DNA of 64,000 nucleotides. Origin: a virus. The stretch covers positions 25,235 to 89,234 of IMG/VR virus record IMGVR_UViG_3300043548_000582, one strand, 5' to 3'. A model generated the notes under the pieces. It was given only the letters and a program-made list of their open reading frames with translations, was not told the origin of the DNA and searched no databases. Made by a program: the position numbers and the translations under genes. Of the stretch, positions 28,348 to 62,614 are shown in pieces; within the stretch, counting starts at the first letter, position 1; each line of letters begins with the position of its first letter.

Positions 28348-28460
28348 AATTTGGTTATAGTATTACAACTATTCCTATTTAACACAATTGAAGTCTGCAT
28401 TATAAAAAATAATATAGCAAAAGTTTATTTAATACCAATCTTCACATGCTAAATAATGGT

Positions 28461-29258
28461 ATGGATAATAAATATTATGTCTATGGTTTATATGAAGAAG
28501 GAAACGAATTTCCATTTTATATCGGTAAGGGTAGTGGTAGACGAGTTGAACGATATGCTCTAGATGATACTAGACATGGGTATATGCTAATATGCAAATT
28601 TAAAAATTTAAAAAATAAAAATATTAAATTGGAGCGCAAAATATTACATGATGGGTTATCTGAAAGTGAATCATTGAAAATTGAAATGGATTTAATAAAG
28701 CACTACGGTAAACGATGTGATAATACTGGGATATTGTTTAATTTTACAGATGGTGGAAATCAACCACCATCTGTTGAGGTAGTTCGAAAATTATACGGAG
28801 AAGAAAAATATATTCAAATGCAAATGAGACGTAATAAAACATTTTATGAAAATCATTTTGTTAAAAATTTTGAAAATATTGCAAGGGTTCAAGAATTATT
28901 AAATCAAAATTTTTTAATTAAAGAAGTCGCAGAAATTTTAGGGTTTGATAGAAATACCATTTCTCGCTGGATTAAATTGTATGATTTGAATTACGACGAC
29001 ACCAAAAAGAAGGTTTTGGAAATTGAAAGATTGGTGTCTTTTCGCGAATCTAATAGTAAAAAAGTTCAAAAAACAGCAAAAAAATATTTAGTATTATGTC
29101 CTGATGGAGATGAAGTTTGGGTATCGAAATTGGTCAATTTCTGCAAAGATAATCAATTAGATTATAGAGGATTGAGGAATACATTCAATAAACGTAAAAA
29201 GAACGGAACCCGATGTGCGTATAAGGGGTATTCTATAATAAATGTTATAGACCCCTGA
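28461..29258 (+). mobile_element. free-standing GIY-YIG homing endonuclease with HTH, inserted antisense
   Basis: YYVYGL..PFYIGKG..R, LFNFTDGG, IKEVAEILGFDRNTISRW; very AT-rich; TAAATA at 28450-28455. Confidence 0.8.
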
Positions 29259-29265
29259 TTGGATA

Positions 29266-29598
29266 TCACCAATCGCGACAACTTTCGTAATTTGCAGTTC
29301 CAGCCTTGGCACTTGAACATTTATGCCTTGCACGGAATGATTTTTTTCTCTTGGTATTGCCACTCTTACCAGTCACACGAACACCTGCTTGTCCCCAGTG
29401 TATTCTCTTATAAGAACCATCGGGTTGACGAGCACACTTGGTCCACTTTTTACCTTTTCTGTCACTACTGGCCTTTTTGGTTGGCCCTGTGCATTTGTTG
29501 GATTTCTTTTCCATGATCTCAATTAGATCAATATCAAATTCGTCTTGATCAAATTCCAGCGATTCCAAAATTGATGATGCTACTTTATCAAAATTCAT
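29266..29598 (-). CDS. small basic Cys-containing protein (SFRARHKC family)
   Basis: IHWGQ.G...RKKSFRARHKC..Y..C.DW; start MNFDKV 5 nt after TAAATA. Confidence 0.8.
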   Translation of the reverse strand: MNFDKVASSILESLEFDQDEFDIDLIEIMEKKSNKCTGPTKKASSDRKGKKWTKCARQPDGSYKRIHWGQAGVRVTGKSGNTKRKKSFRARHKCSSAKAGTANYESCRDW

Positions 29599-29631
29599 AA
29601 CTTTATTTACCATTTAGGCTAAATAATTTGC

Positions 29632-58951: not shown

Positions 58952-59485
58952 ATGATAAACCGAATATTTTTTGACATCGACGAGACTCTCATTCATACAA
59001 CCTTGAGAGATCCGAATCAAGAGCATATTGTTCTTGCTTTGGATGATTGTATGTATTACACTATTGTCAGACCGTGTGCTAAGGCTCTTATCGATTTTGC
59101 CAGAGATCTCGTAGGAGCAGATCGTGTTCATATTCTAACTACAGCAACAAAAGATTATTCACAAGAAGTGAATCGTTTAGCTGGTTGGGGATTCAAGAAT
59201 GAAGATATCTTCGCCAGAGAAGATATGGCCAGCCATTTCCGATCATTCCCTTCTGCATATGGTGGCTACCACACAGAGTGTGATCCTCATATCTATGCTC
59301 ATAAGGATAATGTTATTATTGATAATCTTCGTCCAAGAGATAACGAACGGAAGATCGCTTTCATTGGAATCAATAGTACTTATGAAACAAACTATCTGAA
59401 AATCGATGACTATTATGGTGTGGAATTCAAGGATTCCACCTTCGAACAAGACGTAAAGAATTTCCTACTAGAAAGAAACAAATAA
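58952..59485 (+). CDS. HAD-superfamily (FCP1/NIF-like) phosphatase
   Basis: FFDIDETLIH, RP, ILTTA..DY, IIDN. Confidence 0.8.
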   Translation: MINRIFFDIDETLIHTTLRDPNQEHIVLALDDCMYYTIVRPCAKALIDFARDLVGADRVHILTTATKDYSQEVNRLAGWGFKNEDIFAREDMASHFRSFPSAYGGYHTECDPHIYAHKDNVIIDNLRPRDNERKIAFIGINSTYETNYLKIDDYYGVEFKDSTFEQDVKNFLLERNK

Positions 59486-59486
59486 T

Positions 59487-59846
59487 ATGACACTTAATTT
59501 AACCGTATTTTTCACAGTTCTAAACACTTTAAAAATCGATCACTGGCAAACCACAAGCCATGCCGAGCATGCTGCATTGGGAACAGCATATGAAAAATTG
59601 GATGAGTTGTTTGATACATTTATTGAATATTTTTATGGATCGAGAGGACTCCCAACGAATCCAACTGCATATAAAGTCTCATTATCATCCTATTCAGGGG
59701 ATTTGATTTCATCTTACTCGAAATTGAAATTTGAAGTGGTTAGCTACTTGCAGTCGATTTCAGAAAATTATGGAGATTTGAAAAACTTATGTGATGAAAT
59801 CGAGGGCGAATTTAGTCATTTGCTCTATAAACTAAATCAGAAGTGA
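59487..59846 (+). CDS. ferritin/Dps-like four-helix protein
   Basis: HWQT.S.AEH.ALG..YE.L..L.D.FIE...G, LYKL. Confidence 0.7.
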   Translation: MTLNLTVFFTVLNTLKIDHWQTTSHAEHAALGTAYEKLDELFDTFIEYFYGSRGLPTNPTAYKVSLSSYSGDLISSYSKLKFEVVSYLQSISENYGDLKNLCDEIEGEFSHLLYKLNQK

Positions 59847-60055
59847 TTCTTCAGCTAAACCCCCCGCTTCCTCTTGAAACACCCAGAGGAAGCGGGTTTG
59901 CTCATTTCTTAATAGATTATTCCCAAGAGCATAATCTTCTTTGGGTTGTTTTTTTAAACGAAAGCGGAGAATGTTGGACTTTTCAAAATTCAGAAGTGAG
60001 ACTTGAAAAAAATCTCTCATTAGGACGAAGCGCAACATCATTAATTAAACGCTAG
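59843..60055 (+). CDS. hypothetical protein
   Basis: QLNPPLPL.TPRG.G.AHFLIDY..EH, GECWT. Confidence 0.7.
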   Translation: MILQLNPPLPLETPRGSGFAHFLIDYSQEHNLLWVVFLNESGECWTFQNSEVRLEKNLSLGRSATSLIKR

Positions 60056-60069
60056 GATAAGATCGGGGC

Positions 60070-60111
60070 ATGCAAACAAAGCAAGTAATCGTAGTCCGTA
60101 AGGATAAATAA
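60070..60111 (+). pseudogene. orphaned original 5' end of pth2 (MQTKQVIVVRKDK*)
   Basis: manual translation matches the Pth2 N-terminal motif KQVIVVR.D. Confidence 0.7.
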
Positions 60112-60115
60112 TTAT

Positions 60116-61000
60116 ATGATTGTTTACTTATGCACTAATATAATTACAAAAAAACATTACGTTGGAATAACATCTCAAACTCTTCAAAAAAGAAAAAGAG
60201 TCCATAAGCACAACGCTCTTACAAAAAATCTTCCAAATTATTTTTACAGATCTATTAGAAAATATGGATGGGATAATTTTATATGGAACATTATAGAAGA
60301 TGATGTGTATGACTTTGCAATTTTGAATTCTAAAGAGATAGAGTATATTGAAAAATACAATGCCTTCACTAATGGTTATAATATGACGATTGGAGGTGAT
60401 GGTACAGTTGGTTACAAGCATACAGAAGAGGCTAAAAATAAAATATCCAACGCAACCAAAGGAATTGCAAAAGGTCCAATGTCAGAAGATCATTACAATA
60501 AAATTTCTAAAATTAATAAATCTAGATGTGGAAAAACATATGAAGAATTGTATGGCGTGGAAAAAGCAACAGAATTAAAGGCGGGTTTATCTAGATATGC
60601 TAAAGAATTACATGATAATCAGAATCATAAAGAATGGCTGAAAATGTCATACGATGAGAAATATAATGAAAAAGCAGAACAAATTAAATCTAAAATGTCC
60701 ACAACGCATAAAAATAAATTAGTAAACGGAAAACGTGCGAACATTAGTGAAGCTGGCCTACAAAGAATGAGAGATTCTAAACTTGGATCAAAAAATAATA
60801 ATTATGTTGAGGTTGATATCGAATCACAGGAATTAATAATTCGTTTATATAAAACATATGGAAAAATAGTTCCAGAAATTTTACACGAATCTGGATATAG
60901 TAAACATGTAATTAAAAGATTTTTAAAGGATATAAAAATATATGCAGGAAGAAAAAAATACAAAGATGGTAATTGTAGTAAGAAAATTCCCAAATCTTAG
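60116..61000 (+). mobile_element. GIY-YIG homing endonuclease (Seg-like, NUMOD3)
   Basis: IVY..TN...K.YVG.T, H, FYRSIRKYG, GYNMT.GG.G..GYKHTEE.K.KIS. Confidence 0.9.
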
Positions 61001-61373
61001 GACTGGAAAATATTGTAGTCAAGTCGCCCACGCCTCAATGGCCTTCCTTACAAAAGGTGGTGGCGTTTACTGCAATCTTGGAACTGGTATCCCACAAGTC
61101 AATTACTTTATGTCTTCAGTTGAAGACTATCATGAGATGGAGATCAACCACTGGCTTCGTAACTCCTTCCGTAAGATCTGTGTCTATGTCAACAGCGAAG
61201 AGGAACTTGAAGCAGTTCATCAGAAAGCTCTTGACTCTGGATTGGTTTCACATATGATTGAGGACAACGGAGCAACTGAATTCAACGGTGTGAAGACCAA
61301 GACCTGTTGTGCAATTGGTCCACATGTTTGCTCTAAATTCGCTGATATTACCGACCATCTGCCATTACTATGA
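60942..61373 (+). CDS. pth2: peptidyl-tRNA hydrolase, Pth2 type
   Basis: KMVIVVRK, GK..SQVAHAS, W....FRKIC, I.D.G.TEF, T.TC.AIGP, T.HLPLL. Confidence 0.9.
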   Translation: MQEEKNTKMVIVVRKFPNLRTGKYCSQVAHASMAFLTKGGGVYCNLGTGIPQVNYFMSSVEDYHEMEINHWLRNSFRKICVYVNSEEELEAVHQKALDSGLVSHMIEDNGATEFNGVKTKTCCAIGPHVCSKFADITDHLPLL

Positions 61374-61558
61374 AAGAAAAAACACTATACTATCTTGTGG
61401 CATGGAGCGATGACCGATCCACATCATATTCATATGTATCGGTCGAGGATATTCAGAAAGATTTTGATAAGTACTCACACAATCGTTGCACAATCTACAA
61501 AAAAGTGGATAAAGAAGAACTACTAAATTTTGATCGTGAAGAACTGCCATTACTATGA
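61370..61558 (+). CDS. hypothetical protein
   Basis: 62 aa, flanked by a 16-bp direct repeat. Confidence 0.6.
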   Translation: MKEKTLYYLVAWSDDRSTSYSYVSVEDIQKDFDKYSHNRCTIYKKVDKEELLNFDREELPLL

Positions 61559-61791
61559 ATAATCCACATATCAGCAAAGAAGCTTTCCAAAAAATCTGGA
61601 ACGAAACATTAGGTCAAGTTGAAGATTTGGAATTTGAATGCTCTCCTGAAGTTAAAGAACATCTTATAAAAATTTCAAATGGTGAATACACCGATGAAGA
61701 AATTATAGAACATCTACAATTAGACATTTATATTAAACTGCCAATGCCTCAGAAATTTATTACGGTTGATTTCGATGTTAAGGAACTCTAA
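61555..61791 (+). CDS. hypothetical protein
   Basis: 78 aa, ATGA overlap. Confidence 0.6.
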   Translation: MNNPHISKEAFQKIWNETLGQVEDLEFECSPEVKEHLIKISNGEYTDEEIIEHLQLDIYIKLPMPQKFITVDFDVKEL

Positions 61792-61802
61792 TAAAATAAA
61801 TT

Positions 61803-62019: not shown

Positions 62020-62349
62020 ATGAGCGAAATTAACTACAAAACACACAAACGAGTAAGACTAGAAGATCTCCCAGATGTCGAATACTTTGATTGGGGTAAT
62101 GGAGAAACTCTCGAAGAGTTCATCGAATACTTCGTAAAACTCAATGAAGCTGCTAAGAAAGCAGGAGTAGTAAAAACCTTGGTTGATATTAGTACTGGTG
62201 ATGGATATCGTGATATCGATGGTTGGATTCCAAAAACTCCAGAAGAACTTGAACAAGATCGTCTTGTTCAAGAAAGATATGATGCTACTCTCCGAGAACG
62301 AGAACTGAAGGAGTTGAAACGTCTGAAAGAAAAGTATGAAGGAGCGTAA
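62020..62349 (+). CDS. hypothetical protein (..LKEKYE C-terminus)
   Basis: start MSEINY; similar to 62614..63009. Confidence 0.65.
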   Translation: MSEINYKTHKRVRLEDLPDVEYFDWGNGETLEEFIEYFVKLNEAAKKAGVVKTLVDISTGDGYRDIDGWIPKTPEELEQDRLVQERYDATLRERELKELKRLKEKYEGA

Positions 62350-62614
62350 ACCTACTGACTATGGTGACTTCACCGAATATCAAGTTCGATGCTTGATTGC
62401 TGAATATTGTAAGAGTGTGACTCTTGGAACTACAGGGTGGGGAGTATCATTCAAAGATTGGGTGGAACTCCGAGGCATTGCTAAACACGATGGTATGTTT
62501 CGATTGATTGCTCTAAGTCATGAAGAGAAGTGTGAAATAGTCGAACCAGCAATTGAAAACAGCGACGAAAAAAAGACCATATTCTCCCCTTTTGGATTTG
62601 AAATTAAAGAGTAA
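62336..62614 (+). CDS. hypothetical protein
   Basis: 92 aa. Confidence 0.6.
   Translation: MKERKPTDYGDFTEYQVRCLIAEYCKSVTLGTTGWGVSFKDWVELRGIAKHDGMFRLIALSHEEKCEIVEPAIENSDEKKTIFSPFGFEIKE

Follow-up and report, generated by a model that had tools for sequence, protein, structure and literature searches.

The locus described here lies in a 64,000-nt window, the whole stretch of DNA that was analysed, which belongs to an 89-kb viral contig with a CheckV completeness estimate of 43%. Myovirus tail genes (tail sheath, tape measure, fibres) are found in the window, and the host of the cassette considered below is a T4-like freshwater myovirus. Downstream of orf70, and on the same strand, lie a stranded pth2 start, a free-standing homing endonuclease gene and an intact, chimeric pth2 gene (Table 1). 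The product of orf70 shares 75–80% amino acid identity with that of the gene immediately before pth2 in L035, L036 and L041–L043, and the nucleotide alignment with relatives continues from orf70 via the spacer into the relic.

Table 1. Features of the pth2 locus, and a second endonuclease gene in the same window.
Feature	Position	Strand	Basis or remark
Upstream neighbour gene (orf70), 70 aa, no family	59843..60055	+	Anchors the gene order common with endonuclease-free relatives
Relic: native pth2 codons 1–12 (MQTKQVIVVRKD)	60070..60105	+	Base-for-base alignment to the pth2 start of relatives
TAAATA motif	60104..60109	+	6 nt (60110–60115) before the endonuclease ATG by window coordinates; 5 nt in the spacing count
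Putative mobile unit, ~925 nt: TAAATA, endonuclease gene, 29 donor pth2 codons	60104..61028	+	X2 and X5–X7 contigs, protein mosaic
Free-standing GIY-YIG + NUMOD3 homing endonuclease, 294 aa	60116..61000	+	Pfam and PHROG matches
Chimeric intact pth2, 143 aa, donor-type N-terminus and native body	60942..61373	+	PF01981
Donor-derived pth2 5′ end, 29 codons (MQEEKNTKMVIVVRKFPNLRTGKYCSQVA)	60942..61028	+	Identity to L005 and L003
Native pth2 part, from His30	61029..61373	+	Endonuclease-free X2 contig rejoins the window at 61029
Second GIY-YIG endonuclease	28446–29258	antisense	Follows a 115-aa gene ending ...NYESCRDW and stop

Positions 60070..60111 read ATG CAA ACA AAG CAA GTA ATC GTA GTC CGT AAG GAT AAA TAA, a 13-codon mini-ORF (MQTKQVIVVRKDK and a stop) that an earlier, sequence-only reading had described, correctly, as a Pth2-type start. 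The stop of this frame, at 60109–60111, comes from the cassette. A metagenome scan yielded endonuclease-free relatives (L035, L036, L041 and L043) that share the gene order orf137–NIF phosphatase–DUF5856–orf70–pth2, and the same reading had anticipated that pth2 would begin at the relic in such genomes. In all four, pth2 does so: right after orf70 it begins MNTKQVIV(I/M)RKDLNMR(K/R)GK, and its start falls at the exact position of the relic (M-N-T-K-Q-V-I-V-(I/M)-R-K-D). The Pth2 of L035 is 73% identical to that of the window. A manual count on the alignment gave four mismatches between the relic and L041 over the first 24 nt, and nucleotide homology to the relatives with the same gene order stops directly after the window's GAT at 60105. 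The relic is also of the same type as the starts of P0130–P0137 (MQTKQILVVRKDLNMRKGK), 80–82% identical relatives that carry the window's pth2 body.

Between the relic and the new start of pth2, 8 of 12 residues and 21 of 36 bases are identical. No other 12-mer in the six frames of the 64-kb window exceeds 6 of 12 residues, so the resemblance of the relic to a pth2 start is not due to chance. Related loci totalling 686 kb each hold a single copy of the motif TK[QML]VIV, located at the start of pth2; only those with the endonuclease (the window, L005 and L006) hold two. The relics in runs X5–X7 carry five silent changes, spread over four codons, and one V>M replacement, and M is the commonest residue at that position in working alleles; these relics have therefore been shaped as working gene starts. 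The native pth2 start is not preceded by a TAAATA motif.

The endonuclease consists of an N-terminal GIY-YIG catalytic domain and, downstream of it, NUMOD3 as a separate DNA-binding module. NUMOD3 scored 23.4 bits against a Pfam cut-off of 20.4, and GIY-YIG (PF01541) scored 22.0 bits, just below its cut-off of 22.6 (E = 2.1e-4). PHROG homing-endonuclease families matched with E-values of 3e-21, 3e-17 and 6e-15. Residues Y4, Y15, G17, R26, H30, E74 and N89 are invariant when nine full-length relatives are included (10 sequences), so that the Tyr, Tyr, Arg, His, Glu and Asn of the catalytic domain are all conserved. From these invariant catalytic residues across nine members, the endonuclease looks active. 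The C-terminal 40 residues form the best-conserved stretch of the family; they matched no named HTH family, and a PDB sequence search with the endonuclease gave no significant match to solved structures.

The tails of eight of the nine family members are IYAGRKKYK-like and, shifted by one base, read MQE(E/D)..NTK, the start of pth2. A search of the phage collection with the DNA of 59400–61800 gave no match, and protein searches of that collection returned just distant Pth2 proteins (up to 43%) and relatives of the endonuclease catalytic domain. When viral contigs were scanned, the endonuclease as sole query found no match; with the family alignment, L005 and L006 were the only full-length relatives. 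Three other loci (L082, L086 and L028) have a GIY-YIG gene of an unrelated type in the intergenic DNA before a distant pth2.

The sequence-only reading placed a TAAATA promoter at the end of the relic. The motif is real, and its reading as a gene-start signal is supported by its distribution: TAAATA followed by 5–9 nt and an ATG precedes 23 of the 78 ORFs in the window, mostly structural genes such as those for the tail sheath and tape measure, and 24 of 69 ORFs have TAAATA somewhere within 45 nt upstream, where random windows would give 1.8. It is the recurrent gene-start signal of this phage, probably a late promoter. The endonuclease homologue in L005 has TAAATA at the same spacing. Given the motif before 23 of 78 ORFs and before both endonuclease homologues, the endonuclease thus carries the phage's own, probably late, start signal. 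The complete T4 octamer TATAAATA shows no enrichment (5 occurrences against 7.35 expected), and scans for sigma-70 promoters and terminators gave background levels. AAGGA lies 11 nt before the endonuclease ATG, within the relic, and also before the new pth2 ATG, within the endonuclease; it may function at both starts. In the window and in the L005 homologue, a hairpin pairs the TAAATA region with endonuclease codons 3–6. Neither hairpin is significant against shuffled sequences (z = −1.1 and −1.8), and the arrangement gives a hint of I-TevI regulation.

Downstream, the pth2 ORF matches PF01981 with an E-value of 2.3e-24 over profile positions 2–115 of 115. Its product begins MQEEKNTKMVIVVRK, also given as MQEEKNTKMVIVVRKFPNLRTGKY, and matches the archaeal structures 2zv3, 1rlk and 1xty, with the GK motif and the D of D-N-G-x-T-E aligned. 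The alignment to 2zv3 covers both the segment with the Lys of the GK motif and that with the Asp of D-x-G-x-T, and the Pth2 domain is full-length. We take these two residues to have the catalytic roles given for the published archaeal enzymes. The pth2 and endonuclease ORFs overlap by exactly 59 nt in different frames: the first 59 nt of the donor pth2 5′ end also encode the C-terminal tail of the endonuclease. The native part (GGGVYCNLGTGIPQV...) matches L034 and P0121–P0137, and the window's Pth2 body is 87–90% identical to those of L034, P0121 and P0130. Natural N-terminal extensions of Pth2 include MK-, MSEK- and MQDER-.

The ORFs bear out the earlier claim that the last 59 nt of the endonuclease gene encode a new pth2 start in another frame, and the claim that pth2 was kept by means of a replacement N-terminus agrees with the full start supplied and the intact reading frame. 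The accompanying description of pth2 as 'split' by the endonuclease does not hold, as there are no two working parts, just a stranded 12-codon stub. As for the term 'recoded N-terminus', a full replacement start is indeed present, but it shows no special recoding and is merely the 5′ end of a diverged donor allele.

The extent of the foreign DNA was read from sequence mosaicism and from independent contigs. Positions 60840–61012 of the window are ~94% identical to L005 at the nucleotide level, whereas the endonuclease genes of the two are otherwise ~55% identical in DNA and 47% in protein. Positions 60969–61058 are ~90% identical to L003, and from ~61060 onward the window's pth2 resembles L034-type bodies; the boundary of the protein mosaic lies after about residue 38. 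Contigs from three other metagenome studies (X5, X6 and X7) match the unit at 99.4% identity or more, whereas the flanks differ by 7–8%. Differences from the window in the upstream flank amount to 11 of 149, 21 of 248 and 14 of 189 bases in X5, X6 and X7, respectively; they fall to 1–3 per 330–590 nt in the endonuclease region and restart at 61043. The junction after GAT is identical in strains that are 7–8% apart.

Run X2, from a further study, contains an endonuclease-bearing contig that covers 60054–61070 with zero differences from the window (depth 15.8). A second contig from the same run, of which only the two sides were read, joins 60093 to 61029 without the unit (depth 10.1), and carrier and non-carrier forms thus occur side by side. 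As the sequence mosaic, the X5–X7 contigs and the X2 contigs agree on the right boundary, the unit is delimited at ~60104–61028. Its near-identity in strains with diverged flanks suggests that the cassette has spread recently. The endonuclease is accordingly present or absent at one site among related genomes and has mosaic flanks; together, the relatives with the same gene order and the homology break at 60105 support the earlier proposal of an insertion inside the 5′ end of pth2.

The same module is found on other pth2 alleles. In L005 and L006, which have another gene neighbourhood, a 47%-identical endonuclease has the same 3′ overlap and is followed by the same MQEEKNTKM start; both loci keep a relic of their own, MNTKQVIV, followed by TATAAATA. 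An exact-pattern scan for the junction sequence matched L005, L006 and L008 only. Among the best 120 Pth2 relatives, MQEEKNTKM with VIVVRKFP(S/N)LRTGKYCSQVAHAS occurs on at least three distinct bodies besides that of L005. The window, P0144 and P0148 agree at 95% over their N-terminal 38 residues, whereas their bodies are 64–68% identical, and each of these bodies has an 87–94% identical partner with a standard native-type start (P0130/L034, L041 and L036). Such incongruence between N-terminus and body is expected under co-conversion by a homing element. Judged by the shared start, an endonuclease would also be expected beside P0144 and P0148; a genome-contig scan with P0148 returned only distant bacterial Pth2 genes.

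Some alleles combine the two types of start. The FPNLRTGKY segment occurs with a standard start in 36 of the best 120 Pth2 relatives, and it is nearly invariant across very different bodies. P0122, P0128 and P0129 read MNTKM-VIVVRKFPSL, a hybrid of relic-type and cassette-type starts, as might be left if the endonuclease was removed when the two degenerate start copies recombined. L008 has the MQEEKNTKM start followed by a native-type segment. The sequence-only reading had stated that endonuclease-free relatives with both this start and the upstream mini-ORF would speak against it; L008 has the start without the endonuclease and so provides one half of that combination, but it has no mini-ORF or relic. 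It is read as a product of loss or reshuffling rather than as a refutation. Alternatively, L008 indicates that the MQEEKNTKM extension could be an ordinary ancestral allele before which the endonuclease first settled.

It had further been suggested that the replacement start makes the carrier allele immune to cutting. P0002, an endonuclease 88% identical to that of the window, overlaps a pth2 start that is followed by a native-type 'RKDLNMRKGK' segment. In a constraint check, the extended tail of P0002 was compatible with MQEEKNTKMVIVIRKDLNMRKGKMIAQGSHASMAFI at 36 of 36 positions, but from position 12 onward it conflicted with the FPNLRTGKY type. As an endonuclease thus sits beside a native-type segment, immunity cannot depend on FPNLRTGKY alone, and this segment was rejected as the determinant. 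The evidence on immunity is mixed, and the simple version of the idea appears weakened. As for the site of cleavage, the left boundary is the insertion point, which suggests that cutting takes place near the insertion, as with intron-encoded enzymes. The known cut sites of the T4 Seg and Mob enzymes are reported to lie far from the endonuclease gene, by hundreds to thousands of bp (PMC2988022).

The architecture of the locus, the native relic, the cassette boundaries, the presence or absence of the unit among close strains and its occurrence on several pth2 bodies are all directly visible. They are very probably explained by the arrival of a free-standing, I-TevI/Seg-like GIY-YIG gene after codon 12 of pth2, as a ~925-nt cassette with a foreign pth2 start. 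On this reading, the endonuclease gene holds in its 3′ end the translation start of the donor allele, start codon and ribosome-binding region included. It is proposed that the enzyme cuts endonuclease-free pth2 alleles close to their 5′ end. Repair of the break would copy the cassette from a carrier genome. On the right side, recombination would resolve where homology resumes, at ~61029, and on the left side within the first codons of the recipient or right where they end. The first event would have to be one-sided or illegitimate and would have created the start duplication; in later events, the relic together with the DNA upstream of it could serve as the left homology arm. In this mechanism, pth2 would stay functional because the cassette supplies a complete start. 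Removal of the endonuclease that spares pth2 would then need recombination between the two degenerate start copies, and the hybrid starts of P0122, P0128 and P0129 look like products of such loss.

An unlikely alternative is that the endonuclease is a bystander, with MQEEKNTKM as an ordinary allelic start, the endonuclease merely occupying the spacer before it, as is usual for T4 seg and mob genes, and the relic left by unrelated recombination that exchanged the entire 5′ region, with no homing into the coding sequence. L008, with this start and neither endonuclease nor relic, is in keeping with such a history, as are the natural extensions of other Pth2 proteins and the unrelated GIY-YIG genes in plain intergenic DNA before distant pth2 genes. 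Moreover, variation in the endonuclease tail is unconstrained although the pth2 sequence encoded by the same bases is conserved, so that the tail looks like read-through into pth2. Against a bystander, two unrelated gene neighbourhoods (that of the window and that of L005 and L006) both have a relic beside the endonuclease, and no endonuclease-free locus has a second copy of the start motif. The limits of the low-divergence stretch also fall at the end of the relic and at His30, and the module occurs on several pth2 bodies. The bystander and homing models differ mainly on the first event and little on present behaviour.

Two further explanations are far less probable. Phage GIY-YIG endonucleases are often intron-encoded, and several database sources call relatives of this endonuclease 'group I intron endonuclease', which might suggest that the relic is a first exon joined to the downstream part by splicing, an intein or ribosome bypass. 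Repair of this kind at the RNA or protein level is very hard to reconcile with the locus. No Rfam family, ribozyme cores included, matched 59400–61800 on either strand at E ≤ 1, and the room outside the endonuclease ORF amounts to 10 nt between the GAT of the relic and the ORF, and 0 nt after it. Because the downstream copy repeats relic codons 3–11, the start codons occur in duplicate, one set on each side, and the flanks do not line up with an uninterrupted allele. An intein is excluded, as the frame of the endonuclease differs from those of both start copies and a stop ends the relic. The endonuclease thus lies inside neither an intron nor an intein, as had been concluded from the sequence. 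The remaining explanation, that the locus is a chimaera assembled from endonuclease-bearing and endonuclease-free strains, draws on the presence of both forms in at least one sample, which can confuse assemblers. It is most improbable, given that independent contigs from four studies (X2, X5, X6 and X7) span the relic–endonuclease junction without gaps and that the same design recurs in L005 and L006 from other metagenomes.

The preferred reading, a homing cassette that replaces a gene terminus, has precedents in two settings. Intronless homing with co-conversion of flanks is known from T-even phages (PMC2988022), and the locus resembles it in that a T4-like myovirus carries a free-standing GIY-YIG gene whose presence varies among close relatives and whose flanks are co-converted. 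Further likenesses are a late-type start signal directly before the ORF, a weak start-codon hairpin, and signals of the downstream host gene embedded in the endonuclease ORF, an arrangement that favours retention. Unlike the seg and mob genes of T4, which are intergenic, the element sits 12 codons inside a coding sequence and duplicates the gene start; to judge by its boundaries, cleavage takes place near the site of insertion. It also differs from the phage gene insertions at Aeh1 nrdA/mobE, T4 39-60/mobA and phage 25 gene 43, where two polypeptides must reassemble; here one single gene has been rebuilt.

The other setting is the mitochondrial mORF gene hybrids, which are described for atp6 of Allomyces macrogynus and for atp6, atp9, cox2 and nad3 of Glomus (PMC3630166); partial C-terminal duplications of cob and atp6 are also reported from fungal mitochondria (PMC6279837). 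As in fungal mORFs, an endonuclease ORF has entered a terminal coding region together with a foreign, in-phase copy of the displaced terminus: the cassette follows codon 12, and its 29 donor codons join the native body in phase. The native terminus is likewise stranded beyond the ORF and lies nearer to the native sequence of relatives, with which the relic aligns, than does the inserted copy, which matches the relic at 21 of 36 nt. Fungal mORFs replace the C-terminus, often by in-frame fusion, and many encode LAGLIDADG enzymes, whereas in this phage it is the N-terminus that is replaced; the cassette must therefore also supply a start codon and ribosome-binding region. The in-frame fusion of some mORFs is absent here: the endonuclease ORF begins with a separate ATG (60116) downstream of the relic stop, and its 59-nt overlap with pth2 is out of frame.

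The enzyme itself resembles I-TevI of the T4 td intron, with an N-terminal GIY-YIG domain, a NUMOD3-containing linker, a conserved C-terminal end and a late promoter and hairpin before the ORF, but it is not located in an intron. Its invariant residues presumably correspond to R27, E75 and N90 of I-TevI, which lie at nearly the same positions. No description of a cassette of this kind, whether from phages or from pth2, was found in the literature searched. The terminus-replacing homing cassette is nevertheless real and well supported, and it represents a variant of intronless homing and of mORFs, mirrored at the N-terminus.

The second GIY-YIG endonuclease of the window shows a repeat of the cassette design, mirrored at the 3′ end of a gene. 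The 115-aa gene that it follows ends ...NYESCRDW, and beyond the endonuclease the same strand reads YLACEDWY and a stop. L192 and L207, which have a homologous second endonuclease, also have YLAC(R/K)DW there, and in relatives without it the gene ends about 14–24 nt before the next gene. The window has two endonucleases of this design, at the 5′ end of one gene and at the 3′ end of another. Rather than chance products of a single repair event, they may belong to a dedicated class of phage mobile elements, namely endonuclease cassettes that lie a few codons inside gene ends, carry a ready-made replacement terminus and expression signals, home precisely and use the stub as a homology arm; this proposal is tentative, with a chance that we would put slightly below even.

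To our knowledge, homing endonucleases have been thought to survive within genes only by means of introns or inteins, and otherwise to sit between genes. If the class is real, it would provide a third way for a homing endonuclease to reside inside an intact coding sequence. At pth2, the spare start that came with a free-standing endonuclease within the coding sequence leaves the gene whole. For a natural system, the record of gain, spread and probable loss at this locus is unusually full. With a unit of ~925 nt, both forms in one sample and several pth2 bodies, it therefore offers a compact system for questions about natural populations: how such cassettes originate (one-sided repair), how they spread and are lost (recombination between copies), and how mosaicism arises at phage gene ends. 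For annotation, the 13-codon stub and the 59-nt overlap may mislead gene callers as to the true start of pth2.

A second GIY-YIG endonuclease in the window, within a locus spanning positions 28426-29613, shows a mirror image of the pth2 case, at the 3′ end of a gene. It lies antisense to a neighbouring gene, part of whose 3′ end seems to recur as a relic on that gene's own strand, past the endonuclease. The motif YLAC(R/K)DW is kept at the relic position in two relatives, L192 and L207, both of which carry a homologous endonuclease (60-64% identity). In relatives without the second endonuclease, the next gene begins 14-24 nt past the stop codon of the 115-aa gene homologue.

Features of the second endonuclease locus and example TAAATA gene starts (window positions)
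Feature	Position	Strand	Remarks
Second GIY-YIG endonuclease	28446-29258	+	Antisense to neighbour gene
Neighbour gene, 115 aa	29266-29613	-	C-terminus NYESCRDW, then stop
Relic	28429-28455	-	Reads YLACEDWY, then stop; past endonuclease
Starts with upstream TAAATA	44694, 49781, 47060, 33906, 60116		

Starts of pth2 seem to attract endonucleases repeatedly, because a GIY-YIG gene of unrelated type also precedes pth2 in three other contigs (L082:2326-3426, and likewise L086 and L028). Its catalytic domain has 33% identity to that of the first endonuclease and its C-terminal part is unlike. Its site is ordinary intergenic sequence, flanked by a DNA polymerase III alpha-like gene on one side and a distant pth2 (40% identity) on the other, with neither an endonuclease-pth2 overlap nor a relic. 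In P0002, a protein 88% identical to the first endonuclease (60116-61000), the stop codon is lost and the ORF extends 19 codons through the overlapping pth2 start; the residues of this tail seem to be a side effect of the pth2 frame.

Phage Pth2 contains an insert of ~22-30 aa relative to archaeal Pth2 (residues ~37-66; window 61050-61140), hypervariable in length and sequence across relatives, with conserved sequence on either side. In two metagenome contigs (L100:2992-3357 and L101:952-1317), only the first ~52 residues of pth2 remain, joined in frame to the homologue of window ORF 62336-62614. With the catalytic half lost through this deletion, some relatives seem able to do without pth2.

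T4 intron endonucleases are silenced on early transcripts by a hairpin of the same arrangement as one found here, in which the TAAATA region pairs with endonuclease codons 3-6. It occurs in both homologues, the first endonuclease (window 60092-60137) and that of relative L005 (4300-4335), with weak, non-significant z-scores against shuffles of only -1.1 and -1.8, respectively.

Of the 78 window ORFs of at least 60 aa, 23, for the most part structural genes, have a TAAATA upstream that is separated from the ATG by 5-9 nt. If TAAATA is the -10 element of the late promoter, this spacing would yield nearly leaderless messages.
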